A DNA stretch of 52,770 bases from Phage PEA2-3: sequence record MW508890.1; one strand, written 5' to 3'. Positions 8,940 through 52,042 of this stretch are shown here, piece after piece. Made by a program: the position numbers and the translations under genes. A model generated the notes under the pieces. It ran no database searches and was not told where the DNA came from. It worked only from the letters and a program-made list of their open reading frames with translations. Positions within the stretch are counted from its first letter, which is position 1, and the number at the start of each line of letters is the position of its first letter.

Positions 8940-9425
8940 ATGCAAAAGAAGAAGATGGACAAGTGGGACAGGCGGTTTATGCGCATAGCTTGTGAAGTTG
9001 CGAGCTGGTCGAAGGACCCGAAACGTCAAGTCGGTAGCGTTCTTGTGGACCAGAACAAGCGTATTATTTCCACTGGATATAATGGTCTACCTACGCAGTT
9101 AGACTCTATAAGAATAGTGCCTAATAGCCTTAAGAACGCTCTAACTATTCATAGCGAGATAAACACCTTAGCTAATATAAGGAGTGAGTTAGACACTCCT
9201 TCATTAGGCCCGGTTACCATCTACATAACATACCCGCCGTGCGAACATTGTGCAGACATGCTGATAGCCAACCTTAACCTGGTACGTGTAGTTGCATTGG
9301 CACATACAGCTTCTCAATCCAAATGGAAGGATAGCATGGCAAATGCCGTCGCCCACTTGTGGGCTCATAATATTGTGTACGATGAATTCAGCGTTGAGGA
9401 GTTTAACAATGCCAAGTCCGTTTGA
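8940..9425 (+). CDS. dCMP (deoxycytidylate) deaminase
   Basis: Zinc-binding deaminase signature HSEINTL ... PCEHCA; about 160 aa. Confidence 0.75.
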   Translation: MQKKKMDKWDRRFMRIACEVASWSKDPKRQVGSVLVDQNKRIISTGYNGLPTQLDSIRIVPNSLKNALTIHSEINTLANIRSELDTPSLGPVTIYITYPPCEHCADMLIANLNLVRVVALAHTASQSKWKDSMANAVAHLWAHNIVYDEFSVEEFNNAKSV

Positions 9426-12840: not shown

Positions 12841-13365
12841 GGACATCCTTACATCTCTCTTCTTATCAACAATCAATTAAGCCTGGTGTGTTGAAACAGT
12901 GAGGGTGTCCAGTGAATGCAGTTCAATTCTGCTCGCTGACCGAGATTTGGTAAAAGCCGTGATGTGTGAGGTTCGATTCCTCCGACGCTGAAAAGGGTAT
13001 TGGCTCGCTACCTTGGCCCCAGGCGCCTGGTGTAGACGGCGGTCACAATTTTAGTTGTGGTGTTTTGGCGTATCTTTTTGACACCCGTCGGGTGCAGGTT
13101 ATCCACAATAACTCAGGTGCTAAGACACCACAACTAAGGTTGTACTTGCTGTGTGCTTTTGCCACTCCATCGGTGTAATAAGTGCAACGCTCTATACTTT
13201 CCGTGGTGAGAGCACACAGCAAGTAACGCATATGTGATTGGCTACTCGATAACACCTCCTTTCGTCTCGTCGCGGGGATTAAAATGGTAAGTCTTTTGGC
13301 CAATCTCATATGCGCTGCCTGGTTGCATAGTTACGATGCCTTGTATCTCCTTACGCCACCCTGCC
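12841..13365 (+). ncRNA. Candidate structured non-coding RNA or cis-acting structured element
   Basis: About 0.5 kb without a convincing ORF, flanked by hairpin terminators; long inverted repeats at 13047-13064/13123-13141 and 13141-13158/13209-13225; 12-bp palindrome ccaggcgcctgg at 13019-13030. Confidence 0.35.
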
Positions 13366-13475: not shown

Positions 13476-13874
13476 ATGAACCTACAACGTGTTGCTGAAG
13501 CTTATTACAGGATTTGGATACTTCGGCTAGAGGGCCAAATCGACTACGTGAACACCGTCGGCCGCGAAGATTACTTGCCTGCATCTTCTTTCCAGGAAGT
13601 ATGCAACATTGCTCAAACTCTTGAACATGAATTTGATAAAGTCAAGTTTACACGCGATGTGCAAACAAACTTTATCAAGTTTGAAACAACCATGCGCTGT
13701 AAATTCCCGTTTATCAAGCGCATATCCCGTACCGGCCTTTTCATTGTTCCCTTTCCTGTGGGTAAAGAACGTTGGGACACTTTAGAACAGGCTCGTCATA
13801 TTATCTGGTCTACAGAAATTAAGCGTAAGTTTATCGAAACTGTTTGTAAGGAGTTACGAAATGCGATTCAGTAA
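13476..13874 (+). CDS. Hypothetical protein
   Basis: 132 aa, RBS agaggagagatacaatg. Confidence 0.5.
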   Translation: MNLQRVAEAYYRIWILRLEGQIDYVNTVGREDYLPASSFQEVCNIAQTLEHEFDKVKFTRDVQTNFIKFETTMRCKFPFIKRISRTGLFIVPFPVGKERWDTLEQARHIIWSTEIKRKFIETVCKELRNAIQ

Positions 13875-14454
13875 AATTGCTGCAGGCGTTACCGCTTTTC
13901 ATGAGAAGTTTGACCTCAAGCCTGTTAGTCAAGGCGGTAAACCTGAGTTCAAGCTTCGTTACGACCGTCTTATTGAGGAGATGGAAGAAATTAAACAAGC
14001 TAAGAAGGACGGCGACAAAGCTGGCTTCTTAGATGGTATTGTAGATTTAATTTACATTGCCGCAGGTACGTTATACTTGTATGACCAGACTGCATGGTTC
14101 ACCAACGAATTTGAGTATCCGATTCTGTTAACTACGCCATGCGGATTTATGGACCGCTTCGATGCTGACGGCCTTATTGTATATGTTAAGGATACTGAAG
14201 ACACTCATTGCGACCGTCTGGCCCAGTTAATTATCCACCTGATTACCTGGTGTGCAAACAACAACTGGCCACTTGACGCAGCATGGGATGCGGTACAGGC
14301 TGCTAACATGGCGAAAGAACGCGCTAAGCCTGATGCAAGCAACAGCAAGCATAAGTCTGGTCAGGATATTGTTAAGCCTGAAGGATGGAAAGCACCTGAC
14401 ATCCAGGCCATCATCGACGCACACGTTAACCCGGCTCAAAAGGAACTGTTTTAA
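13861..14454 (+). CDS. MazG-like all-alpha nucleoside triphosphate pyrophosphohydrolase
   Basis: R..LIEEMEEI ... DGIVDLIY and C-terminal AANMAKERAK resemble the MazG/HisE EExxE...D and K...R pattern; RBS taaggag. Confidence 0.55.
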   Translation: MRFSKIAAGVTAFHEKFDLKPVSQGGKPEFKLRYDRLIEEMEEIKQAKKDGDKAGFLDGIVDLIYIAAGTLYLYDQTAWFTNEFEYPILLTTPCGFMDRFDADGLIVYVKDTEDTHCDRLAQLIIHLITWCANNNWPLDAAWDAVQAANMAKERAKPDASNSKHKSGQDIVKPEGWKAPDIQAIIDAHVNPAQKELF

Positions 14455-15338
14455 TGAAAACATACAGCACTGTCGATTCTCTTTACAGCGACATCATTTC
14501 TTTTATCCTGCGTAAAGGTGAGGATGTTGTAGACCGTACAGGTGTTGGTACCCGCCGTTGTTTTGGTACAGCATTTAAGCTGGCTTTCAACGACAACAAA
14601 CTGATGGTGCCGGTGTTTAAGCCTGTTAACATCAAAGCTGTTGCTGCTGAGCTTTACTGCTTTATCAACGGTATTTCAAACGTCGACACGCTAAAAGGCT
14701 TTGGCTGCAACTGGTGGGAAGGTAACCTACAGGACGCAAACAAACGTTGGGGTACGCCAGACAACCGTGACTTAGGTCCTGTGTACGGCGTGCAATGGAT
14801 TAAGCCATTCTATAAGAATGGTGTTCTTACTAACCAGCTTAAAGATGTTATTGAAACGCTGAAGGTTAAGCCTACTGACCGCCGGGCGTACATTACGGCA
14901 TGGAACCCACAAGAGATGGACGCCATGGCCCTTCCGCCTTGTTACCATGGTTTTCAGCTGTTCATTAACAACCGTAATGAATTAGAGTTGATGTTCCACA
15001 TGCGTAGCGCGGATGTTATTCTTGGCCTGCCTCACGATATTCTGTTGCATCAGATGTTGCAGATTACCATTGCTGCTGAGCTGGGTACTGGGGTAGGTGA
15101 TATGACTGTTACGCTGGGTGATTATCACATCTACCAGAATCATATCGATGCGGCAAAGATTTTCCTGCAACGTATCGTAAGCAATTCTGATACTACACTG
15201 GACACTAACTTTGAAGGTCGTCCTGACATTAACGCAATTTATGACGTGTCAGTGTTTGACTTCACTCCTGCCGATGTTACGCCAATGGTTGAGAAGTACA
15301 AACCAATGCCAAACATCAAACTCCAAATGGCCGTATAA
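14454..15338 (+). CDS. Thymidylate synthase (ThyA) family enzyme, probably a dCMP C5-methylase or hydroxymethylase
   Basis: Aligns by eye to ThyA: DRTGVGT, DLGPVYGVQW, AWNP, catalytic Cys in ALPPCYH, MRSADVILGLPHD, GDYHIYQNH; the conserved PFNI Asn position is Asp (PHDI). Confidence 0.7.
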   Translation: MKTYSTVDSLYSDIISFILRKGEDVVDRTGVGTRRCFGTAFKLAFNDNKLMVPVFKPVNIKAVAAELYCFINGISNVDTLKGFGCNWWEGNLQDANKRWGTPDNRDLGPVYGVQWIKPFYKNGVLTNQLKDVIETLKVKPTDRRAYITAWNPQEMDAMALPPCYHGFQLFINNRNELELMFHMRSADVILGLPHDILLHQMLQITIAAELGTGVGDMTVTLGDYHIYQNHIDAAKIFLQRIVSNSDTTLDTNFEGRPDINAIYDVSVFDFTPADVTPMVEKYKPMPNIKLQMAV

Positions 15339-15368: not shown

Positions 15369-16364
15369 ATGAGCAAGTTTAACTATGACACCAAACAAAT
15401 ACAGACTGCCGTTCAACAAGCTCGTCCCATCAAGTATACTGATAGTGGTCTTATGGGCAAAATATGGATTGCAGACGGAACAATCCATTCATACTACAAG
15501 AACGTATTACTACGAGCGCCATGTAAAGGATTTCCAGACCTGCAAGTGGATGCTGAATCATTTCGTAAGGCCGTTAATGCGGCAAGAACTGAACAGATTA
15601 CTTTTAACATTACAGCCGCTGGAAACCTCACAGTCACAGCAGGTGTACTTAAAACAAGAATGCAAGCGCTTAATGAACCAATACCGCCGCTTGCTACAGT
15701 TAACAACTGGTATTCAGCGCATGGCGAATTGCTCCCGGTATTAACTGCCTTAGCCAAATGGGTACCTAACGAAGCACCGCAGGTATGGGCAACATCTTTA
15801 CTTCTGCGCGATGGTTATGCTTACGCCACCAACGGTAAGTATATGATACGTGAGAAGCTGAACGTAGATTTTGAATTTGAATGTGCCATAGCCAAACCAA
15901 TGCTTGAGGCTCTGGTTAAGCTGAAGATGGAACCCACAAGTGTAGGTTACGCCCGCGGCCAGATGTTCTTCGGCTTTGCGGATGGTGTACAGATGGATGC
16001 CCCGGTACTTGCAGCCAAATGGCCAGACGTATCGAAGTTCTTCAATATGGAAATGGATATGCAGGCCATCACTCCTGAGTTCCTGGAAGTCATGGACCAG
16101 CTTACTGGGTATGACGAAGGTCAAGCCATCCTGGAGATAACAGGCGAGTCAACTGCAAAGGCAGACTTACCAGATAAGATTATTCCAAAGATGTCCGTCG
16201 ACATTAAGTTCCAGTCGACTAAGTTTAGTAAACCGTTCAACTGTGTTATTAGTCAGATGAGTAAACTGGCTAAAGGCATGGAAAGAATAGGACTGGGTAG
16301 TCAGGCGCTCAAAATGGAAAACTCAACTCGTACAGTTGTAATTGCGTATGTTAGAGGGGACTGA
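15369..16364 (+). CDS. Hypothetical protein upstream of DNA polymerase
   Basis: 331 aa; stop overlaps the polymerase start; any processivity role is speculation. Confidence 0.45.
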   Translation: MSKFNYDTKQIQTAVQQARPIKYTDSGLMGKIWIADGTIHSYYKNVLLRAPCKGFPDLQVDAESFRKAVNAARTEQITFNITAAGNLTVTAGVLKTRMQALNEPIPPLATVNNWYSAHGELLPVLTALAKWVPNEAPQVWATSLLLRDGYAYATNGKYMIREKLNVDFEFECAIAKPMLEALVKLKMEPTSVGYARGQMFFGFADGVQMDAPVLAAKWPDVSKFFNMEMDMQAITPEFLEVMDQLTGYDEGQAILEITGESTAKADLPDKIIPKMSVDIKFQSTKFSKPFNCVISQMSKLAKGMERIGLGSQALKMENSTRTVVIAYVRGD

Positions 16365-18331
16365 TGAGCTTTTTATTCGATAGCTTCGAAGGTGCAAAGA
16401 ATGTTAAACCTATCAACCGTCCTATACCATACGTCAGGGATACTGGATGGAGGCCGCGCGCGCATTACCCGGACTTGTCTTCTGCAAAGATTATCGGTCT
16501 TGACTGTGAAACATACGACCCAGGGATGGATACAAATGGTAGTGGTTGGGCCAGGAGGGAGGGTCATATCGTTGGAGTTAGTATCGCTACGGACAACGGC
16601 TTCAAAGCTTACTACCCAATCAGACACGAGCTCGGCGAAGAGGATAACCTTCCAGCTGAGGAAGTACTTGGTTGGCTTCGGCTCGAACTCTCGCGACCTA
16701 ACCAAGTTAAAGTCGGTGCTAACATCACATATGACTTGGGCTGGCTTGCAGCAGAAGGCGTGGAAGTTAAAGGATTGTGCATGGATGTACAATTCGCGGA
16801 AGCATTACTTGACCCAGGCGCGCGTGTTGCACTTGAAGGACTTGGACGAAAATATGTAGGCGAAGGTAAAGACTCAGCCGAGATGTACCAATGGATTTCA
16901 GATGCTTATGGCTGTAAGCCAACAGGTGAAGCCAGAAAGTACATCTACAAAACGCCTCCTCGTCTTGTGGGTTACTATGCTGAATCTGACGCCGACTTAC
17001 CAATACACATTATCAAAGCCCAGTGGCCATTGTTAAGTCGCTGGTGTTTAACAGACGTATTCTATATGGAGTGCAAGCTCATTCCATTAATGCTTAAGAT
17101 GCGTTTTGCTGGTGTGCGTGTTGACCTTGACAAAGCCAAAGAGGCGGATGATACGCTTAGCGCTGAAATAAGGAAAATGCACCAGCAGATTAAAGACCAG
17201 ATTGGCTTTAACATTAACGTTAACTCAGGTCCGGACTTAGCTCTTGCATTTGACCATCTTGGTCTGGAGTACTTCAGAACAGCGGCGGGCAATCCGTCGT
17301 TTACGGCAGACTTCTTAGCAGGCTTACACCATCCGTTTGCGGAACTGGTGTCTGAGATTAAGTCTTATGAGAAAATCCAGTCCACGTTTATTCGTGGCTA
17401 TATATTGGGGATGAATACAAATGGCTTCCTTCACGGTCAATTCCATCAAATGCGCGGTGATGACGGTGGAACCGTTAGTGGTCGGTTTAGCTCATCTGAC
17501 CCTAATCTGCAGAATATACCGTCTAGACACAAAATACTGGGACCACTCCTTCGTGCTTGTTTCGTACCGGATGTCGGACACAGATGGGGATCAGCAGACT
17601 ACGCCCAAATTGAATATCGATTCATGGCGCATTTTGCAGTCGGCCCGGGCGCTGATGAGTTACGAGCAATTTTCGCGGCTAACCCGGAAGCAGATTACCA
17701 CAATGTTATGGTCGATATTATCAAGGAAGCCTCAGGTCACGTTATAGAACGTAAACCGGCTAAGACCATCAACTTTGGTTTGTTGTACGGCATGATGCTT
17801 AATGCTCTTGCCCGTAAGTTAGCAATGACGCCTGAAGAAGCAGAACCTGTTCTGAAGGCGTACCATCAGGGTGCACCATTCATTGGTGCTACCATGAAGC
17901 ATTATGAAGATTTATGTTATAGCCAGGGTTATGTAGAAACCTTTATGGGCCGGAAGACGTGGTTCAACAAATGGGTCCCAAAACGTGGTGGATTCGGGAA
18001 GATGCCTTTGCCATTTGAAGAAGCACGTCAGGAGTATGGTCCAAACATTAAACTGGCAGACACCCACAAAGCAATCAACCGAGTGCTGCAAGGGTCGTCA
18101 GCAGACCAGATGAAGTCTGCAATGCTGAAAGGGTATGAAGACGGTTACTTTGACGTGATTGGCGTACCTCGCCTGACGGTACACGATGAGCTTAACTTCT
18201 CTCTACCAACTGGTAAGCAAGCAGAAGATGGATTCTATGATTTCGTACGGGTCATGGAAACTGTGCTACCGCTTCGTGTACCTGTTCTTACTGATGCTAA
18301 GATAGAAAGTAACTGGGCAGAGGCACACTAA
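16364..18331 (+). CDS. DNA polymerase, family A (Pol I-like) with 3'-5' exonuclease-like N-terminal region
   Basis: Motif A DYAQIEYR, motif B RKPAKTINFGLLYGM, motif C VHDE; N-terminal DCETYD and YYAESDADL exo-like motifs. Confidence 0.9.
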   Translation: MSFLFDSFEGAKNVKPINRPIPYVRDTGWRPRAHYPDLSSAKIIGLDCETYDPGMDTNGSGWARREGHIVGVSIATDNGFKAYYPIRHELGEEDNLPAEEVLGWLRLELSRPNQVKVGANITYDLGWLAAEGVEVKGLCMDVQFAEALLDPGARVALEGLGRKYVGEGKDSAEMYQWISDAYGCKPTGEARKYIYKTPPRLVGYYAESDADLPIHIIKAQWPLLSRWCLTDVFYMECKLIPLMLKMRFAGVRVDLDKAKEADDTLSAEIRKMHQQIKDQIGFNINVNSGPDLALAFDHLGLEYFRTAAGNPSFTADFLAGLHHPFAELVSEIKSYEKIQSTFIRGYILGMNTNGFLHGQFHQMRGDDGGTVSGRFSSSDPNLQNIPSRHKILGPLLRACFVPDVGHRWGSADYAQIEYRFMAHFAVGPGADELRAIFAANPEADYHNVMVDIIKEASGHVIERKPAKTINFGLLYGMMLNALARKLAMTPEEAEPVLKAYHQGAPFIGATMKHYEDLCYSQGYVETFMGRKTWFNKWVPKRGGFGKMPLPFEEARQEYGPNIKLADTHKAINRVLQGSSADQMKSAMLKGYEDGYFDVIGVPRLTVHDELNFSLPTGKQAEDGFYDFVRVMETVLPLRVPVLTDAKIESNWAEAH

Positions 18332-45907: not shown

Positions 45908-46608
45908 CAGATTACCCCTTCCATAGCATCCATATGCTTACGGATAAAGTTAAGACGATCTGCCAGGTCGTCTGCACGACGTTTTTCAGCGTCACGCTGG
46001 GCAATAAGCGCTTTACGCTCTTCGCTGAAAGCACGGTTATTAGCAATAGCTGTACCATTAAGGCTACGAATCTCAGCCTCATACTCTTCAGCACGTTTGC
46101 CCATCAGTTGCTGCAGGTCGTTAATCTGTCGCTTATAGGCAGTGATAAGCTCAGACGCATCTTTATTGCAGCTTTCCAGTTTGCAGATATGCTCCTGCAG
46201 CATCTGTACATGTGCCCAGCCTTTAGCAATTTCGCGAGCTGACATATCAGCTAACATACGGTCTGACATAGGAGCGCCAGCGTAGTTTGAGGCCTTGCAC
46301 AAGTACCAGTTTAGAGCACTACTGAACATCTCACCAGTACGATATTCCAGCTCATCGTTGAACTTTTCAATTTCATCGCCAGAAGTCGCAATACTGATGC
46401 TGTGTGGACATCCTTCGACGTTAATTTCAATGCTGACGCCTTCAGTACCAGTCACTTCGTTATCTTCAAGAGCACGTTTGGCCAGGCGCAGCAGGTCTTC
46501 ACCTGACAGGTTCGGGTTAGTTGAACCCACAGTAACAGTTTTGTTGACGTCTCCTACGGTTGCTGACAGTGTGATTGAGGTATTGTATACTGGGCTCATT
46601 TGTTCCAC
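45907..46608 (-). CDS. Hypothetical protein with C-terminal coiled-coil-like region
   Basis: 233 aa; C-terminal charged helical segment. Confidence 0.4.
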   Translation of the reverse strand: MEQMSPVYNTSITLSATVGDVNKTVTVGSTNPNLSGEDLLRLAKRALEDNEVTGTEGVSIEINVEGCPHSISIATSGDEIEKFNDELEYRTGEMFSSALNWYLCKASNYAGAPMSDRMLADMSAREIAKGWAHVQMLQEHICKLESCNKDASELITAYKRQINDLQQLMGKRAEEYEAEIRSLNGTAIANNRAFSEERKALIAQRDAEKRRADDLADRLNFIRKHMDAMEGVI

Positions 46609-47102
46609 TCCTTATTAATACGTTCGTTGATGTATTCGAGAACTGCTTCAGGACCGTCTTCTTCAACAGTCCAGTCGTAAATGAAGAACTGCTTACTCAT
46701 CATAACCAGTTCGTCAATGAGGTTGTCATACTGATTGTATAACGCCTCAAGATTTTCCACAACACCAGGCATTTCGTCTTTTGTAGTTGCCAGTACCTTT
46801 TCAACAGGCGGCATACAAAAGATAACGATAGCGTTGCCACACATATCTGCTACATGTGATACATTAATATTGATGACAGGCGTACGTTGAAGAACCAGGC
46901 AATAGATATACTCAGATATAACAGCGCTACGGTCATAAATGCAATTGCCTTCCAACGCGTTTTCTTTGGCCTGTTTAGCCATGACCGATTCGGGGTCCTT
47001 ATCAACAGTATTATGAATAACGCTGCGGCCAGTACGAGATTTAAGGAACTCAATAAGTGTAGATTTACCAGCATTGTCGGGCCCCTCGATTATGATGTTC
47101 AT
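46596..47102 (-). CDS. dNMP / thymidylate kinase-like P-loop kinase
   Basis: N-terminal MNIIIEGPDNAGKSTLIEFL matches the Tmk P-loop pattern; 168 aa. Confidence 0.65.
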   Translation of the reverse strand: MNIIIEGPDNAGKSTLIEFLKSRTGRSVIHNTVDKDPESVMAKQAKENALEGNCIYDRSAVISEYIYCLVLQRTPVININVSHVADMCGNAIVIFCMPPVEKVLATTKDEMPGVVENLEALYNQYDNLIDELVMMSKQFFIYDWTVEEDGPEAVLEYINERINKEWNK

Positions 47103-47773
47103 TTGTGTAAACTCCTGTACCGTTGTATCAGAACTTGTTTGTTATCAACATATTCATCATTATAAGTGAAGTCGCTATCAATGTACATCATTAATTTGCT
47201 ACGATCCATTAAAATATCACTTGGACCTGATTGCTTGATTGTACTGATAAACATGTTGTCGATACGGAGTAAGTCTTTTGCGTGTTCTTCAAGGGCCGAA
47301 AGTATCAACTCGGCACCACCTACAATCCAGACGTCAGTACCTCTGGATTCAAGGTCTGCTGCCATCTCACCCAGATTATTGTAGCCTTCTGAAGCCATAA
47401 TCTGGCGAGATACCGGCAGCAGTATTCTGTGGGCTGACATAGGCAGACTCATAGTCATATACGTATTACGACCGGCTAACAATACGCTATGCCCGACCAT
47501 TTTTACCGTTACATCTGCTATCATATTTCGCAACTGGTCATTTGGGAATTGTCCACGTAGTTGCTGATATGCATTATAGCCTGGTTCTGTCGCAATTGAA
47601 TTAGTCATAGTCCTGAAAAAGAGCATGTCTGACGGACATTTCCATGGTAGACCCGATTTAGGAAGCGCACGAACCTCTTCCATGGTCTTGCACGAGTCAA
47701 CCTGATGCTTCATAAACTCCGGAGACAACCCGAATTCCCCATTTTGGCCCATTGCGAAGATTATATTAATCAC
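47099..47773 (-). CDS. folA: Dihydrofolate reductase
   Basis: Aligns by eye to DHFR: MINIIFAMGQNGEFG, LPWKCPSDMLFFRTMT, VLLAGRNTY, VWIVGGAELI; longer than bacterial DHFR (an insertion). Confidence 0.7.
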   Translation of the reverse strand: MINIIFAMGQNGEFGLSPEFMKHQVDSCKTMEEVRALPKSGLPWKCPSDMLFFRTMTNSIATEPGYNAYQQLRGQFPNDQLRNMIADVTVKMVGHSVLLAGRNTYMTMSLPMSAHRILLPVSRQIMASEGYNNLGEMAADLESRGTDVWIVGGAELILSALEEHAKDLLRIDNMFISTIKQSGPSDILMDRSKLMMYIDSDFTYNDEYVDNKQVLIQRYRSLHK

Positions 47774-48263
47774 CTAAAAAGTCCCCAGTAGTGTCGGTCA
47801 AAAGCGAGTTCATAACGTCTTGTGGCAGTATAGCAGGATGGTTACCTGTTTCGATTTTTGGCTTAGTTTTTGGCGCTTTTTGGCGCTCTATATACTCGTC
47901 ATGGGCCTTACAAATGGCATTTACGATGAAATCATGCTGATATGCGTACCATTCATCGTTTTCTGGGTCGTATTTAAGGCCAACATAGTTCATCAACGAC
48001 GACATTACGTGAATGCCTTCGTGGGAAATGGTGTTGTACTTCAGGTCGTCCGGGTGGTACAGTTCGACGACGATTAACAGGTACGGATAGCTAACGCGAG
48101 AGAACGTAAAGGTAGATGCATTACGCGTTTCTCGGTCATTCCAGTTGCCAAAATCAGGCAAATCCATCAGTTTTTGGAGCTCTTCGTGCTCTTTTTCGCT
48201 ACAAACGATAGCCAATTGAGGCGGATATGGCTCTAATTGAACAATTTTCATAATGTTACCCAC
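47766..48263 (-). CDS. Hypothetical protein with HExxH motif
   Basis: 165 aa with HEGIH; first minus-strand gene leaving the control region. Confidence 0.35.
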   Translation of the reverse strand: MGNIMKIVQLEPYPPQLAIVCSEKEHEELQKLMDLPDFGNWNDRETRNASTFTFSRVSYPYLLIVVELYHPDDLKYNTISHEGIHVMSSLMNYVGLKYDPENDEWYAYQHDFIVNAICKAHDEYIERQKAPKTKPKIETGNHPAILPQDVMNSLLTDTTGDFLGD

Positions 48264-48486
48264 AAGTAGGAGACCGTGAGGCCGTTTGATGATTCACATT
48301 AATGATAGCGCGTGGAGGAGAGAAAGTACACCACTTTTTAGTGAGTGTCTACACAATTTCCGAAAAATATAAAAAAATTTTAGAGGGGCTTCACTTATTA
48401 TTGTGTTAAGCAAAAGGTTAGCTCCTGTCGTATCACTCTGATGATGATTGGTCCTGATAAGGAGAAAATACCAAAAAATAAAAAAA

Positions 48487-48560
48487 TTCCGCTGGCTCCT
48501 GGCGGATAGCACCCCTGCGAAATTACCCCCCGCCGCACCTATTTCAATTGAAATGATTAC
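48487..48560 (+). repeat. Direct repeat unit, copy 1
   Basis: ttccgctggctcct ... gcacccct ... ccccccgccg ... atttcaattgaaatgattac. Confidence 0.6.
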
Positions 48561-48662
48561 TCTGGTAACTATTATGATTGGTACAATTACCGTGTGAACT
48601 ACTTCGGCCGTTATAGCACAAAGCGTCTATAATTCAGATTGAAATTATATTTTTAGAAATAA

Positions 48663-48735
48663 TTTCGCCGGCTCCTTTAAGTGGCACCCCTATGTTATTA
48701 TAACCCCTGCCGACCATTTTGGATTGAATAATTAC
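48663..48735 (+). repeat. Direct repeat unit, copy 2
   Basis: tttcgccggctcct ... gcacccct ... cccctgccg ... ttttggattgaataattac; same block order as copy 1, about 176 bp downstream. Confidence 0.6.
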
Positions 48736-49101
48736 ATGTGAAACTATATCAATTGCATATGAGAACCACTCTCAATTGCAAGTGATTATCATTTCTAAAA
48801 ACTTGCATAAACTTACAAATAAAAGGTGTACAATCAAGAGTGATTGGACTATTATATATTTATTGAATGTGATGACCAAGTGACCAGTCAACTGGTCTGG
48901 AGGGTATTAGTATGGTTTAATTTGGGTAGGTAGTACTTAACCAGTCAACAGGTACATCTGGTAGATGTCAATGGTACCTTTTGCTCTTTAACAATCTGGT
49001 AACATGTTTCTTGTTGATAGTAACACTAGTAATAGTTTCAACCAGTGACTATTGGTAACAGTAGTCACAACTGGAAACTAGTACAAGAGGTGACTATTAA
49101 G

Positions 49102-49248
49102 ATGGACAACTACACACTTTGGTATGATACCAATGAAGGGCTTTGGTGTGTCAATATAAACAATGGTCCAGTACCAGACTTTGAGTCAATGGATGTGGAA
49201 GATTGTGTTGACTTTATCCAATCCCAAGTTATTAAATATCAGGAGTAA
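49102..49248 (+). CDS. Hypothetical small early protein
   Basis: Start set at ATG 49102 after agaggtgac; track ORF began at 49045 inside an operator-like inverted repeat. Confidence 0.4.
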   Translation: MDNYTLWYDTNEGLWCVNINNGPVPDFESMDVEDCVDFIQSQVIKYQE

Positions 49249-49252
49249 TAAG

Positions 49253-49426
49253 ATGAAAGTTTTAGAATTGTCCCAAGAAGAACTGGAATTATTGGTTGAC
49301 CAACTGGACACAACCTTATTTATGGAAAGTGAACTACTGGAAGTGGATAAGGAGTATGGAAGGGATGTCAAAGACCTGGAAGTGAGGGTCAAGTTACTCC
49401 AATCAATTCTGGATAAGTTGAAGTAA
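49253..49426 (+). CDS. Hypothetical small acidic early protein
   Basis: ATG 49253 after aggagtaataag; 57 aa. Confidence 0.45.
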   Translation: MKVLELSQEELELLVDQLDTTLFMESELLEVDKEYGRDVKDLEVRVKLLQSILDKLK

Positions 49427-49521
49427 TTTCCAACAATGGGGACTTGGTAAAAGTCCTCATGATTGGATTTACTTGTCAAGGATTGACACCTATCAAAAAT
49501 TCTATCAATGAGGATACATCA

Positions 49522-50076
49522 ATGACTAACTATGTTTACCTGACTTCCGCTTTTTCTGTTGAGTCTGTAAAATCTGGTCTGACTACTGAAAGTCTTGGGA
49601 CTATTGTAGTGCAGATGGATAGTCTTCAGTACTTTGCCAATAACCAGATCATTAAGATGATTAAGTCCCTTAATGATGAAAGTTCTGTAAGTGTCAAGGA
49701 CTCAAAAGAAGTGTTGGTCAAGGCATTGTTTGATGAACTGAACCAACTGGAAGTGGAAGAGGTCAAAGTTGTGGCATCAAAATCTTCCAATGGCGGGGCC
49801 CGGAAGTCATCTGGTCCATCAACCAAGGACACTTGTTATCTGGTGTTTAAGGATTATAACCTGATGGATAAGGAAGATTCCAAATTGGCACTAGTTGATG
49901 CCATGAAAGCCTGTGGGATGGAGGCGGATGACATCAAAGCCAAAAGAGTTATCCAGTCATATATGTCATACTACCGGAATGATGTAAAATCTGGTAAAGT
50001 GACTGAGGGCAAGTCAGTAACTGGCAAAAAACCTGATACTGAAGTAAAACCTGAAACCCAAGAAACTGAAGAGTAA
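49522..50076 (+). CDS. Hypothetical early protein
   Basis: ATG 49522 after gaggatacatca; 184 aa with Lys/Glu-rich C-terminal tail. Confidence 0.45.
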   Translation: MTNYVYLTSAFSVESVKSGLTTESLGTIVVQMDSLQYFANNQIIKMIKSLNDESSVSVKDSKEVLVKALFDELNQLEVEEVKVVASKSSNGGARKSSGPSTKDTCYLVFKDYNLMDKEDSKLALVDAMKACGMEADDIKAKRVIQSYMSYYRNDVKSGKVTEGKSVTGKKPDTEVKPETQETEE

Positions 50077-50140
50077 TTTTTGAGATGGCACTCAAGTAGT
50101 GCCATCAATTGAAATTATTCACAATCAACAGGAGAGAAAC

Positions 50141-50299
50141 ATGCTTAAAATTAAACTGACCAAAGACCAGGCAATGGCTTTACGGGATATGATGATTGAG
50201 CTGGAGAAGATGGGCACTTTTTCTGATAGTTCTCACACTTCAACTCTTGATTATATTGTTGAGTCCATTGATGACAAATTTTCAGGTTCTGAGGAGTAA
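50141..50299 (+). CDS. Hypothetical small early protein
   Basis: ATG 50141 preceded by the conserved leader attgaaattat...tcaacaggagagaaac; 52 aa. Confidence 0.45.
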   Translation: MLKIKLTKDQAMALRDMMIELEKMGTFSDSSHTSTLDYIVESIDDKFSGSEE

Positions 50300-50304
50300 T
50301 CAAA

Positions 50305-50562
50305 ATGACTGACATTGAGATGAAAAAAGAGCTGGACTTTTATGCTGAGCAGTATTGGGCTGAGTGGGATGAAGGTTCACAAGAATTTGCGGAACTGGTG
50401 ATAGATTCAGGAATTGATGAAGTGCGCCAACACGCCTACATCATCAACATGAATCTGGCGTCAATTATGGGTATCATCGCCAGCGAATTTTCTGATGGCG
50501 AGCGGGACCATGAAGACGTTGTAAGACTGGCAAAAGTTATGGCTTGGGTGGATGCATTATGA
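50305..50562 (+). CDS. Hypothetical small acidic early protein
   Basis: ATG 50305 after gaggagtaatcaaa; 85 aa. Confidence 0.45.
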   Translation: MTDIEMKKELDFYAEQYWAEWDEGSQEFAELVIDSGIDEVRQHAYIINMNLASIMGIIASEFSDGERDHEDVVRLAKVMAWVDAL

Positions 50563-50732
50563 AAGATCTGAAATTGACTGAAGACGAATTGGCGCACCTG
50601 ATTGAATTACTGGAATCAAATGCCCAAATTGTGAAAGATCAAATTTCTGACACTGTTGGCGGTTCCAAAGAGTTTGACAACTTGATGGAAGACTTCCGGC
50701 TGACAATTCAGATCGCAACAAAGTTAGTATAG
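50559..50732 (+). CDS. Hypothetical small early protein
   Basis: ATG 50559 overlaps the upstream stop (ATGA); 57 aa. Confidence 0.4.
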   Translation: MKDLKLTEDELAHLIELLESNAQIVKDQISDTVGGSKEFDNLMEDFRLTIQIATKLV

Positions 50733-50800
50733 TTTCAACAATGAACTATCCAAAGTTGTGATAGTTCATGATTGAAATTATATCAACAGGAGAGAGAAAC

Positions 50801-51190
50801 ATGTACAGTGCAAAATGCGAAGATGGTATCTATACCGTATATTGTGACGGTAAAGTACTCAAAGTTCTGCCAAACGCCTTCAAGTTTGAGCAATTCATGA
50901 CGGTGTTGTGGGAGAACCAGGAGATTAGTCGGGAAGACATTATCGACCTGATGAATCCCTTGATGGGGTACCATCCAATTCGTGAGTTTGACAGTCGTCC
51001 AACTTGGTACAAGCTGGAAGATGGCAAAGTCTGGGAACAAGCCTGGGACAGATTTGAAGGTGGTTACGGCCACTGGACGGTTTACGTCGATGGTGATGAC
51101 GCCCAACGCTACTGGGAAGCAATCAAAAATTGTGCGACCCGGGATGTGACTGATCCGGAATACGACGAGTCAAAATTTGAGGTCAAGTGA
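50801..51190 (+). CDS. Hypothetical early protein
   Basis: ATG 50801 preceded by a second copy of the conserved leader; 129 aa, Trp/Tyr-rich. Confidence 0.45.
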   Translation: MYSAKCEDGIYTVYCDGKVLKVLPNAFKFEQFMTVLWENQEISREDIIDLMNPLMGYHPIREFDSRPTWYKLEDGKVWEQAWDRFEGGYGHWTVYVDGDDAQRYWEAIKNCATRDVTDPEYDESKFEVK

Positions 51191-51390
51191 TGCCACTAGT
51201 CAAATTTACGACGGTAGACCTTGCCCATGGATTGCCACCCAAAGCTGAACAAAAATTCTTGACAGTTGAGGAGTGGCATATCTGGTGCCAGTCAGCTCTA
51301 AAATCTGGGGCTAAACGCACTAATGGTGGAAAAGTGTTTACTCGCTTCAATAAAGAGTGTATAATAGTAGTTCAGGTAATGATAGAGTGA
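51190..51390 (+). CDS. Hypothetical small early protein
   Basis: ATG 51190 overlaps the upstream stop by one nucleotide (track ORF starts at the GTG 3 nt earlier). Confidence 0.35.
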   Translation: MPLVKFTTVDLAHGLPPKAEQKFLTVEEWHIWCQSALKSGAKRTNGGKVFTRFNKECIIVVQVMIE

Positions 51391-51617
51391 TATTAGTCAA
51401 GTCCTGGCGCTGACAGGGCTTGATTAAAAGCTGGTAATTAATTCAATCCTGAGTATTTGATGAAAGTCCTCATGCTTGAATTAACCCACAAGTGGAGGCC
51501 TTATGGTCCGCTGTAAACATGTTGTTGAGTATTCTGTTGTGAATCCTGCATATGCTGAAGGTCGGGCGATGAGGAAGCTGGTTGGGGTCTTTATGATAAT
51601 TCTTATGGTATTGGCTT

Positions 51618-51863
51618 ATGTTTTCTAAGGATGATTTATATGACATTGCTCGACGTGTTAATCAACGCGATTTATCTGGTGTTACCGATCTTTTTTCTGC
51701 CGGCACTTCTGACGATGCGGTATTACGCGAAGCGGAGCGGCGCCAAGCAGAAATACAAAGAACTGCAAGCTGCTGGGATTATCAACCCCCGAAAACTGTA
51801 CCGTTAACCTGGGTTGACATGACAATTTGGTTATTGAATAAACTTGGAATAAGGAGCAAATAA
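51618..51863 (+). CDS. Hypothetical protein
   Basis: 81-aa track ORF with no obvious RBS; an alternative-frame small ORF with an RBS overlaps it. Confidence 0.3.
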   Translation: MFSKDDLYDIARRVNQRDLSGVTDLFSAGTSDDAVLREAERRQAEIQRTASCWDYQPPKTVPLTWVDMTIWLLNKLGIRSK

Positions 51864-52042
51864 TGTTTAAATTCTTACAACGTAACCCTGTCAAAGGTGG
51901 CATGCAATACTGGGTGGACATCCATGGCGGTGAGTATATGATGATTGTCCGCGATGGTAAACCTGCTGAAAGCTCTTTCGCTAAAGGTTGCAACGTTTAC
52001 AACCAATTGTTTGAGTTCCTGGTTGAAGGTGATTACTTGTGA
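51863..52042 (+). CDS. Hypothetical small protein (59 aa, below the ORF-track cut-off)
   Basis: ATG 51863 after aaggagcaaata, overlapping the upstream stop (TAATG); read MFKFLQRNPVKGGMQYW ... EGDYL by hand. Confidence 0.45.
   Translation: MFKFLQRNPVKGGMQYWVDIHGGEYMMIVRDGKPAESSFAKGCNVYNQLFEFLVEGDYL

Follow-up and report, generated by a model that had tools for sequence, protein, structure and literature searches.

Five genes of the Salmonella/E. coli phage PEA2-3 probably make up a pre-replicative pathway of the Xp12 type, by which 5-methylcytosine (5mC) takes the place of cytosine in the phage DNA. They encode a deaminase, a MazG-like pyrophosphohydrolase, a ThyA homolog, a dihydrofolate reductase (DHFR) and a small P-loop kinase. 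The window, i.e. the whole stretch of 52,770 nucleotides that we analysed (MW508890.1), is a complete Rosemountvirus genome with 98% identity to Salmonella phage 8-19. Our argument draws on the families of these proteins, an active-site signature in the ThyA homolog, the synteny of the genes and their agreement with the sets of genes found in known 5mC phages; from these we infer all substrate assignments as well as the presence of 5mC in the virion DNA of the phage itself. An earlier, sequence-only reading had placed the five ORFs at the positions given in Table 1 and in the families named above, and both the ORF check and the profile searches agree with it. The HMM search that it had proposed for each protein was run, and the deaminase, MazG-like protein, ThyA homolog and DHFR matched the expected families.

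Table 1. Genes of the candidate 5mC pathway and the replicative polymerase gene in the window
Gene product	Position	Strand	Length (aa)	Profile matches
dCMP-family deaminase	8940..9425	+		PF00383 3.3e-21, 75.5 bits (cut-off 25)
MazG/HisE-like protein	13861..14454	+		PF01503 31.8 bits (cut-off 21.3); PHROG 671 1e-24
ThyA family enzyme	14454..15338	+		PF00303 2.3e-62, 211 bits (cut-off 24.3)
Family A DNA polymerase with 3'-5' exonuclease	16364..18331	+		PF00476 4.6e-63 and PF01612
P-loop kinase	46596..47102	-	168	PHROG 761 'thymidylate kinase' 1.2e-26
DHFR	47099..47773	-	224	PF00186 30.3 bits (cut-off 25); PHROG 316 9.8e-27

As described before, the genes are divided between two arms of the genome: the deaminase, MazG-like and ThyA genes belong to the replication block, while those for DHFR and the kinase lie on the opposite strand and adjoin the packaging genes. 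The MazG-like gene is translationally coupled to ThyA (stop and start codons overlap in TAATG) and the kinase gene to DHFR (ATGA). Downstream of ThyA and a clamp gene follows the gene for the DNA polymerase, and this module of deaminase, MazG-like protein, ThyA, clamp and PolA is kept even in relatives whose ThyA is no more than 50% identical; the pairing of the MazG-like and ThyA genes also recurs in the phages S144 and fHy-Eco03 and in two metagenomic relatives. The same neighbourhood of deaminase, TS, PRA-PH and DNA_pol_A has been described for cytosine-modified metaviromic contigs (10.1101/2024.12.05.627091). Scans of the window for tRNAs and Rfam families gave no matches, and promoter and terminator matches around the kinase/DHFR block were no more numerous than in shuffled sequence. 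Avoidance of AT-only palindromes, sought as a footprint of cytosine modification, was not seen (O/E 0.94 vs 0.89). Among palindromes, strong avoidance is limited to GATC and GATATC.

The evidence for the nature of the modification lies mainly in the ThyA homolog, which we aligned with the ThyA proteins of E. coli and M. tuberculosis, with its counterparts in Xp12 and PaMx74, and with T4 gp42 (residue numbers are those of E. coli ThyA). It matches the PF00303 superfamily over its full length and contains Cys146, Arg166, Ser167 and Asp169. With 35–38% full-length identity to the two bacterial enzymes, it retains every catalytic and folate-binding residue of thymidylate synthases (TS), as well as the TS C-terminus (...IKLQMAV); in addition to the residues already named, R21, E58, W80, W83, Y94, R126, R127, Leu143, H207 and Y209 are kept. 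It differs from them in the substitutions Asn177 to Asp and His147 to Tyr, the two positions by which cytosine-modifying homologs are told apart from those that make thymidylate. Both changes are characteristic of a phage clade: among the 31 closest homologs, Asp177 is found in 29 and Tyr147 and Asp169 in all, whereas the next 89 homologs, which are bacterial TSs, have Asn177 and His147 without exception.

In the literature, the substitution N177D switches the substrate of TS from dUMP to dCMP, with 5-methyl-dCMP as the product, and positions 177 and 147 show the strongest association with cytosine-modified DNA (PMC8670742). Hydroxymethylases are recognised by an acidic residue in place of Leu143 (L143D/E) and 5-hydroxy-dCMP synthases by D169N (PMC13326640). 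Applied to the ThyA homolog, these rules argue against three assignments. Its Asp177 and Tyr147 set it apart from canonical, dTMP-forming TS, which has Asn177 and His147; it passes the TIGR03284 thymidylate synthase cut-off, and the cut-offs of the NF0024xx equivalogs are not reached. Despite Asp177, its non-acidic Leu143 and conserved C-terminal tail speak against a dCMP hydroxymethylase of the T4 gp42 type, and its Asp169, in place of Asn, against a 5-hydroxy-dCMP synthase of the RB69 gp48 type. The combination of Asp177, a non-acidic residue 143 and a conserved Asp169 is that of a dCMP methyltransferase, and we therefore predict that the enzyme converts dCMP and 5,10-methylene-tetrahydrofolate into 5-methyl-dCMP and dihydrofolate. 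As the identity to the Xp12 and PaMx74 methylases is about 28%, and these have Asn143 and Pro147 in place of Leu143 and Tyr147, the 5-methyl-dCMP product is predicted from such residue rules rather than from close homology; among seven natural Asp177 homologs of TS that were assayed, five made 5-methyl-dCMP and two did not (10.1101/2024.12.05.627091). The proposal that cytosine is modified before replication, with the DHFR pointing to reductive formation of 5-methyl-dC over hydroxymethylation, thus gains support from Asp177, Tyr147, Leu143, Asp169 and the C-terminus of this protein.

A methylation that releases dihydrofolate would also account for the DHFR, which is predicted to recycle this product. 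The phage enzyme is a divergent member of its family, with two insertions relative to the DHFRs of ~160 residues and weak similarity to those of Xp12 and PaMx74. Its substrate and NADPH motifs (PW..P.D, GR.T and GG, here LPW..PsD..fF..T, GRnT and iVGGAeL) nevertheless align with those of solved DHFRs. The deaminase carries the zinc-binding HxE and PCxxC motifs of its family (H71-S-E73 and P100-C101-E-H-C104) and shares 33% identity with its Xp12 counterpart (E 7e-23) and 34% with the cd product of PaMx74. Deaminases encoded beside genes of Asp177-type TSs are often 5mC-selective (10.1101/2024.12.05.627091). The phage deaminase is predicted to act on dCMP and/or on 5-methyl-dC nucleotides, the latter yielding dTMP or dTTP; as in Xp12-type phages, it probably also supplies dTMP from 5-methyl-dCMP or 5-methyl-dCTP.

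In the MazG-like protein, residues E39, E40, E43, D58 and D62 of the acidic metal-binding motif (EExxE...D) are invariant. Its homolog in Xp12 and PaMx74 is the PRA-PH protein, whose gene immediately precedes ThyA; similarity to T4 gp56 was sought and not found. Against solved structures, the profile of its family matches DR2231 of Deinococcus radiodurans (9e-19) and 3nl9 (6.5e-18), with which it has in common the acidic motif and a C-terminal VQAANMAK...KPEGW motif. We therefore regard it as an all-alpha NTP pyrophosphohydrolase, predicted to act on pyrimidine dNTPs; the genomic pairing with a candidate dCMP-modifying ThyA suggests dCTP and/or dUTP as the substrate. DR2231 is reported to be dUTP-exclusive. 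Since this closest solved relative is specific for dUTP, the role of the MazG-like protein as a dCTPase stays putative.

For the kinase, Pfam and NCBIfam profiles of dNK and Tmk match the N-terminal P-loop alone, below their cut-offs, which argues against a canonical dTMP kinase (TIGR00041, 20.1 bits vs 83.25; PF02223, 17.2 vs 27). Because a sequence search of the PDB likewise gave P-loop matches only, we turned to structure prediction. The AlphaFold model is confident (pLDDT 90.7), and its best Foldseek matches, with a probability of 1.00, are YorR of the Bacillus subtilis prophage SPbeta (3kb2, TM 0.72), deoxyadenosine kinase, dCK and TMPKs, which identifies a dNK/TMPK-like P-loop kinase fold; T4 gp1 (PDB 1DEK) is absent from the best 50 matches. 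YorR (PDB 3kb2/2axp) and the dNK/TMPK kinases have the P-loop and the DR motif in common with the phage kinase at 15–20% identity; the phage protein scores below the dTMP kinase and dNK cut-offs. The family of the phage kinase is small: 23 homologs were found, nearly all from the same phage group, and its invariant residues are E6, G7, D9, N10, K13, D57, R58 and R73. A homolog was sought in Xp12 and PaMx74 and not found. The protein formerly labelled 'dNMP kinase' is a small P-loop kinase with a YorR/dNK/TMPK-like fold rather than a canonical Tmk, and is predicted to phosphorylate 5-methyl-dCMP (and dTMP).

Taken together, the proteins would act as follows. The MazG-like pyrophosphatase would hydrolyze dCTP, and possibly dUTP, to the monophosphates, thereby supplying dCMP and depleting competing dCTP. 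The ThyA homolog, specific for dCMP through Asp177, would then form 5-methyl-dCMP and dihydrofolate, with 5,10-methylene-tetrahydrofolate as both carbon donor and reductant, and the DHFR would reduce dihydrofolate to tetrahydrofolate. The small kinase would phosphorylate 5-methyl-dCMP to the diphosphate, a host NDP kinase would complete 5-methyl-dCTP, and the family A polymerase of the phage, a presumed participant that must accept the modified dCTP, would incorporate it into DNA. The deaminase, finally, may turn some of the 5-methyl-dC nucleotides into dTMP or dTTP, or dCMP into dUMP.

Full replacement of cytosine by 5mC is known from the Xanthomonas phage Xp12 and the Pseudomonas phage PaMx74, which encode the same four enzyme families found here (NTP-PPase, ThyA with Asp177, dCMP-family deaminase and DHFR). 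In both, the NTP-PPase gene lies directly upstream of ThyA and a family A polymerase is part of the block; their NTP-PPases and deaminases are detectably homologous to those of PEA2-3. This four-enzyme set further supports the reading of the modified base as 5-methyl-dC. There are differences as well: the four genes are contiguous in Xp12 and PaMx74 but dispersed over two regions here, where the MazG-ThyA adjacency is kept; the ThyA homolog belongs to another lineage, nearer to bacterial TS; an extra, dedicated kinase is present; and PEA2-3 is a myovirus of Enterobacteriaceae, whereas Xp12 and PaMx74 are siphoviruses. The sequence-only reading had compared the toolkit with that of T4 (gp56 dCTPase/dUTPase, gp42 dCMP hydroxymethylase, gp1 dNMP kinase, cd, td and frd). 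The logic is indeed shared, with dCTP clearing, an Asp177 ThyA homolog acting on dCMP, a phage kinase, a deaminase and a DHFR, but Xp12 is a nearer analogue than T4: gp42 has Asp143, lacks the TS C-terminus and releases tetrahydrofolate rather than dihydrofolate (PMC13326640), and the window contains neither a second, canonical TS nor glucosyltransferases.

Two papers have reported an 'unknown' DNA modification in the Rosemountvirus/Loughboroughvirus group, for which the responsible gene was not found; the presence of a 5mC-type gene set probably explains it. The DNA of S144, whose ThyA signature is the same as here, withstands seven enzymes with G/C-containing sites, and SspI and PacI cleave it; that of fHy-Eco03, with the same signature, is cut by ScaI only, and completely. 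In Xp12, 5mC DNA blocks NcoI, NotI, SphI, AflII, EagI, Sau3AI, SmaI, XhoI, SacII, PspOMI and SfoI and is partially cut by ScaI, whereas 5hmC DNA is resistant to ScaI. Of the pairs BstNI/PspGI and MboI/Sau3AI, the first enzyme cleaves Xp12 DNA and the second does not. The restriction of both relatives, which carry the same enzyme, therefore fits 5mC DNA of the Xp12 kind, unlike 5hmC DNA, and adds to the support for 5-methyl-dC, with the discrepancy that ScaI digestion is complete in fHy-Eco03 and partial in Xp12. The literature searched contained no chemical analysis or modified-base identification for any Rosemountvirus DNA, and that on ZCSE2, swi3, vB_SenM-1 and AEV23 held neither restriction nor chemical data. 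One entry counts against 5mC: E. coli MG1655, which we take to be McrBC+ and which should therefore restrict 5mC DNA, is listed as the host of the relative CF2. The paper on CF2 gives propagation on strain CP9.

We consider it unlikely that the modified cytosine carries a C5 group other than a plain methyl, such as a 5-hydroxymethyl or a new or elaborated group, made by the Tyr147-type ThyA alone or together with products of unannotated ORFs. Asp177 is common to methylases, hydroxymethylases and 5-hydroxy-dCMP synthases (PMC13326640), the Leu143/Tyr147 combination is biochemically uncharacterised and unlike that of Xp12 and PaMx74, about half of the ORFs in the genome have no assigned function, and the authors of the fHy-Eco03 study found that known methylation sensitivities could not explain the resistance. 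Yet the protein resembles TS in Leu143, Asp169, the two folate tryptophans and its C-terminal tail, a DHFR is required only where folate is oxidised, that is, in reductive methylation, and the ScaI digestion of fHy-Eco03 DNA is at odds with 5hmC. Moreover, domains of glycosyltransferases, TET/JBP-like dioxygenases, DNA methyltransferases and carbamoyltransferases were found neither among the unannotated ORFs nor in two annotated relatives, and no kinase-transferase domain was detected in the genome. A more specific variant, which we regard as quite unlikely, is that the base of the Rosemountvirus/Loughboroughvirus group is an undescribed C5 derivative made through the Leu143/Tyr147/Asp177 lineage of ThyA, possibly with an unannotated ORF, and that the YorR-like kinase represents a new class of modified-dCMP kinases.

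It is very improbable that the DNA is unmodified and that the genes provide an ordinary dTTP supply for a phage more AT-rich than its host, with dCMP deaminated to dUMP, TS producing dTMP, a Tmk phosphorylating it and DHFR recycling the folate. All GenBank records and the S144 paper annotate the genes in this sense, the GC content of the genome is 46%, similar sets occur in T4 and T5-like phages, and the ThyA homolog scores as a thymidylate synthase with TIGR03284; against this stand the Asp177 of 29 out of 31 clade members, compared with the invariant Asn of the 89 neighbouring TSs, the loss of dUMP preference upon N177D (PMC8670742), and the refractoriness of two relatives' DNA to nearly all restriction enzymes with G/C-containing sites. 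Most improbable of all is that the relatives owe their resistance to a guanine modification or post-replicative methylation in which the toolkit takes no part: the blocked sites all have both G and C, and the S144 terminase groups near that of phage 9g, a 7-deazaguanine carrier, but neither the window nor the annotated relatives contain TGT/DpdA, QueC/D/E, FolE or DNA methyltransferase domains, and the Asp177/Tyr147 signature would be left unexplained.

The mechanism of the 5mC pathway proposed here is already known from Xp12, but Rosemountvirus and Loughboroughvirus are widely isolated and have been proposed for the biocontrol of Salmonella and E. coli. Should the ThyA homolog prove to be a dCMP methylase, the 'unknown' modification of the group would be resolved, these phages would be myoviruses of enterobacteria in which 5mC fully replaces cytosine, and their host range should hinge on Type IV restriction (McrBC/McrA/Mrr-like). 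There would be consequences for cloning such genomes, for mapping them by restriction and for their nanopore base-calling, and more than 60 GenBank records that name the gene 'thymidylate synthase' would need correction. The group would also offer biotechnology an independent lineage of dCMP methylases, perhaps together with a deaminase selective for 5mC and a kinase for 5-methyl-dCMP.

The window is a complete genome of Rosemountvirus, a myovirus group with Salmonella and E. coli as hosts, and has a GC content of about 46%. Over the kinase and DHFR genes it shares 98% identity with Salmonella phage 8-19, and the window is 96-98% identical to some 40 further records, including BP63, birk and swi3. 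Every ORF named in the sequence-only reading was recovered with identical ends, and its family assignments for the DHFR, deaminase, MazG-like and ThyA genes agree with the profile matches obtained gene by gene. The DHFR and kinase genes overlap by ATGA and the MazG-like and ThyA genes by TAATG, so that each pair is probably translated as a unit.

Features of the window discussed in the text
Feature	Position	Strand	Evidence
dCMP-family deaminase	8940..9425	+	HxE and PCxxC motifs intact
Two tandem long hairpins, intergenic	13030-13240	+	arms 13045-13069/13119-13143 and 13143-13165/13203-13225
132-aa ORF (orf132)	13476..13874	+	PHROG 36727, no assigned function
MazG/HisE-like pyrophosphohydrolase	13861..14454	+	profile match
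ThyA-family protein	14454..15338	+	PF00303 2.3e-62
P-loop kinase, 168 aa	46596..47102	-	PHROG 761 'thymidylate kinase' 1.2e-26
Divergent DHFR, 224 aa	47099..47773	-	PF00186 above cut-off; PHROG 316 9.8e-27
165-aa ORF	47766..48263	-	PHROG 1365, no assigned function; HEGIH (HExxH) motif
Low-GC region	48001-52000		many small ORFs, no assigned function

The ThyA-family protein was aligned with E. coli and M. tuberculosis ThyA, the enzymes of Xanthomonas phage Xp12 and Pseudomonas phage PaMx74, and T4 gp42. In E. coli numbering, it retains R21, E58, W80, W83, Y94, R126, R127, L143, C146, R166, S167, D169, H207 and Y209, as well as an intact thymidylate synthase (TS) C-terminus (...IKLQMAV), and it carries two substitutions, Asn177 to Asp and His147 to Tyr. 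N177D changes the TS substrate from dUMP to dCMP and the product to 5-methyl-dCMP, and positions 177 and 147 show the strongest association with cytosine-modified DNA in viromes (PMC8670742), while hydroxymethylases are recognised by an acidic residue at 143 and 5-hydroxy-dCMP synthases by D169N (PMC13326640). Read by these published rules, the signature at 143, 147, 169 and 177 predicts a dCMP methyltransferase; among natural Asp177 enzymes tested, five of seven made 5-methyl-dCMP and two were negative (10.1101/2024.12.05.627091). Such an enzyme would release dihydrofolate and thereby provide a task for the phage DHFR, which bears out the earlier argument that the DHFR points to a reductive, dihydrofolate-yielding methyl transfer.

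A search of 5.8 billion proteins placed the 31 closest ThyA homologs (50-99% identity) on 45-54-kb phage contigs, sharply set off from the remainder, bacterial TSs at no more than 37% identity. Within this block, Asp177 occurs in 29 and Tyr147 in all 31 members, whereas the next 89 homologs have Asn177 and His147 without exception; the pair is thus a conserved lineage trait and not a sequencing accident. Two members of the clade from short metagenomic contigs, P0013 and P0020 (ThyA 53-55% identical), keep Tyr147 and have Asn177 and Lys127. These may represent reversion to dUMP use or intermediate stages, and would be useful for telling apart what positions 147 and 177 each contribute. Given an identity of only about 28% to the Xp12 and PaMx74 enzymes, and Leu/Tyr at residues 143/147 where these have Asn/Pro, the window lineage looks like an independent derivation from canonical TS.

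The surrounding gene set resembles that of known 5mC phages. In Xp12, whose cytosine is wholly replaced by 5mC, four contiguous genes encode a PRA-PH/MazG-like 'hydrolase', a ThyA homolog, a dCMP deaminase and a DHFR; PaMx74, for which the same replacement is reported (10.1101/2024.12.05.627091), has the same four genes in identical order. The MazG-like protein of the window is homologous to the Xp12 protein (E-values of 3e-6 in a large database and 4e-9 by tblastn), and its deaminase is 33-34% identical to those of Xp12 and PaMx74. The related phages S144 and fHy-Eco03 keep the order deaminase, ..., MazG-like, ThyA, clamp and family A polymerase, and the order from deaminase to PolA is also kept in two metagenomic relatives with ThyAs 50-53% identical. 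Cytosine-modified metaviromic contigs share the domain neighbourhood deaminase, TS, PRA-PH and DNA_pol_A; their deaminases are 5mC-selective and are proposed by the authors to produce dTMP from 5-methyl-dCMP (10.1101/2024.12.05.627091).

Restriction data on relatives bear on the nature of the modification. S144 (Loughboroughvirus), whose ThyA has the same signature at 73.5% identity, has DNA that is uncut by seven G/C-containing enzymes and cut only by SspI and PacI; its authors proposed a cytosine modification and did not find the responsible gene (PMC7432712). For fHy-Eco03 (ThyA 58% identical, same signature), ScaI is the sole cutter, and the modification was termed 'unknown' (PMC8145870). 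The 5mC DNA of Xp12 resists NcoI, NotI, SphI, AflII, EagI, Sau3AI, SmaI, XhoI, SacII, PspOMI and SfoI/KasI, and ScaI cuts it partially but does not cut the 5hmC DNA of T4gt (Flodman et al., PMC7653180). On this basis the published patterns fit 5mC better than 5hmC, although ScaI digestion is complete for fHy-Eco03 and partial for Xp12 DNA. Neither the window nor its annotated relatives were found to carry genes for a glycosyltransferase, a TET-like enzyme, a DNA methyltransferase or 7-deazaguanine modification.

GATC avoidance is common among enterobacteriophages generally. Across the window, no other tetramer is nearly as depleted as GATC (26 occurrences vs 157 expected, z = -10.4; sites include 64, 427, 4856 and 51687) and the EcoRV site GATATC, expected 12 times, does not occur, while no avoidance of other G/C palindromes or of CCWGG (147 vs 155) is seen. 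As MboI and DpnII cut 5mC Xp12 DNA and EcoRV cuts 5hmC DNA (PMC7653180), the avoided sites are those that a C5 modification leaves unprotected.

Two records, PP583539.1 and KY608966.1, are oddly labelled. 'Listeria phage 220426122051' is 96% identical to the Salmonella/E. coli phage group, which makes its host label doubtful. The Escherichia phage CF2 record is UNVERIFIED and placed under Tequatrovirus, yet is a 53-kb Rosemountvirus; it lists as host MG1655, an McrBC+ strain expected to restrict 5mC DNA, which is a point against the 5mC reading. The CF2 paper describes propagation on strain CP9.

The MazG-like family profile matches D. radiodurans DR2231 (9e-19) and PDB 3nl9 (6.5e-18), and its metal-binding acidic residues are invariant; no similarity to T4 gp56 dCTPase was seen. 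The title of a paper cited in PMC10014863 describes DR2231 as having dUTP as its exclusive substrate. The window protein is likely a pyrimidine dNTP pyrophosphatase, with dCTP, dUTP or both as predicted substrates. The start of its gene is overlapped by the 3' end of orf132, which has conserved counterparts in S144 (77% identity) and fHy-Eco03 (42%) and was not detected in two more distant relatives (L009 and L010). The fHy-Eco03 record (MW602648, 514-3927) flags four proteins as virion-associated by LC-MS/MS of phage particles: the orf132 homolog, the MazG-like protein, the ThyA homolog and the DNA polymerase. Nucleotide-metabolism enzymes are unexpected in particle preparations and may be carry-over. 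The hairpins lie upstream of the block that runs from orf132 through the MazG-like and ThyA genes to clamp and PolA. Folded as RNA, their region reaches -94.4 kcal/mol (z = -7.95, unmatched by any shuffle) and has no Rfam match; it could be a replication origin, a terminator or regulatory element, or a small RNA.

In the other arm, the DHFR motifs PW..P.D, GR.T and GG align with solved DHFRs, and the protein fits a role in recycling dihydrofolate. The adjacent 'dNMP kinase' stands as a P-loop kinase with a PHROG match, but not as a canonical Tmk (20 bits vs a cut-off of 83); in Pfam and NCBIfam, its P-loop alone matches, below cut-off. Its family is narrow, with 23 homologs found, nearly all within this phage group, and its confident model (pLDDT 90.7) resembles B. 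subtilis SPbeta YorR most closely (TM 0.72), with deoxyadenosine kinase, dCK and thymidylate kinases next in rank. The invariant residues, among them the P-loop, a DR motif and a second Arg, appear compatible with a monophosphate acceptor. From its context, we infer a 5-methyl-dCMP kinase; Xp12 has no counterpart of this protein. The 165-aa ORF and the start of the DHFR gene share 8 nt, which places the ORF in the same apparent operon; PHROG 1365 is its sole match, with none in Pfam or NCBIfam. The region 48001-52000 differs from the remaining genome in having the lowest GC (0.41) and a strong positive GC skew (+0.146), and is probably the early or terminal-repeat region; relatives have direct terminal repeats of 3.7-3.9 kb.

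The ThyA signature, the 5mC-phage gene set and the relatives' restriction data both support and sharpen the base-modification interpretation of the sequence-only reading. These enzymes most likely form an Xp12-like pathway swapping cytosine for 5mC before replication, in which the ThyA homolog would methylate dCMP to 5-methyl-dCMP and the phage DHFR would handle the dihydrofolate released. That the phage DNA carries some C5-modified cytosine is likely; the explanation in full we consider reasonably probable. The mechanism itself is not new, and what differs is the independent ThyA lineage and the unusual kinase. An Xp12-like pathway is the most likely explanation for the DNA modification described as 'unknown' in this phage group.
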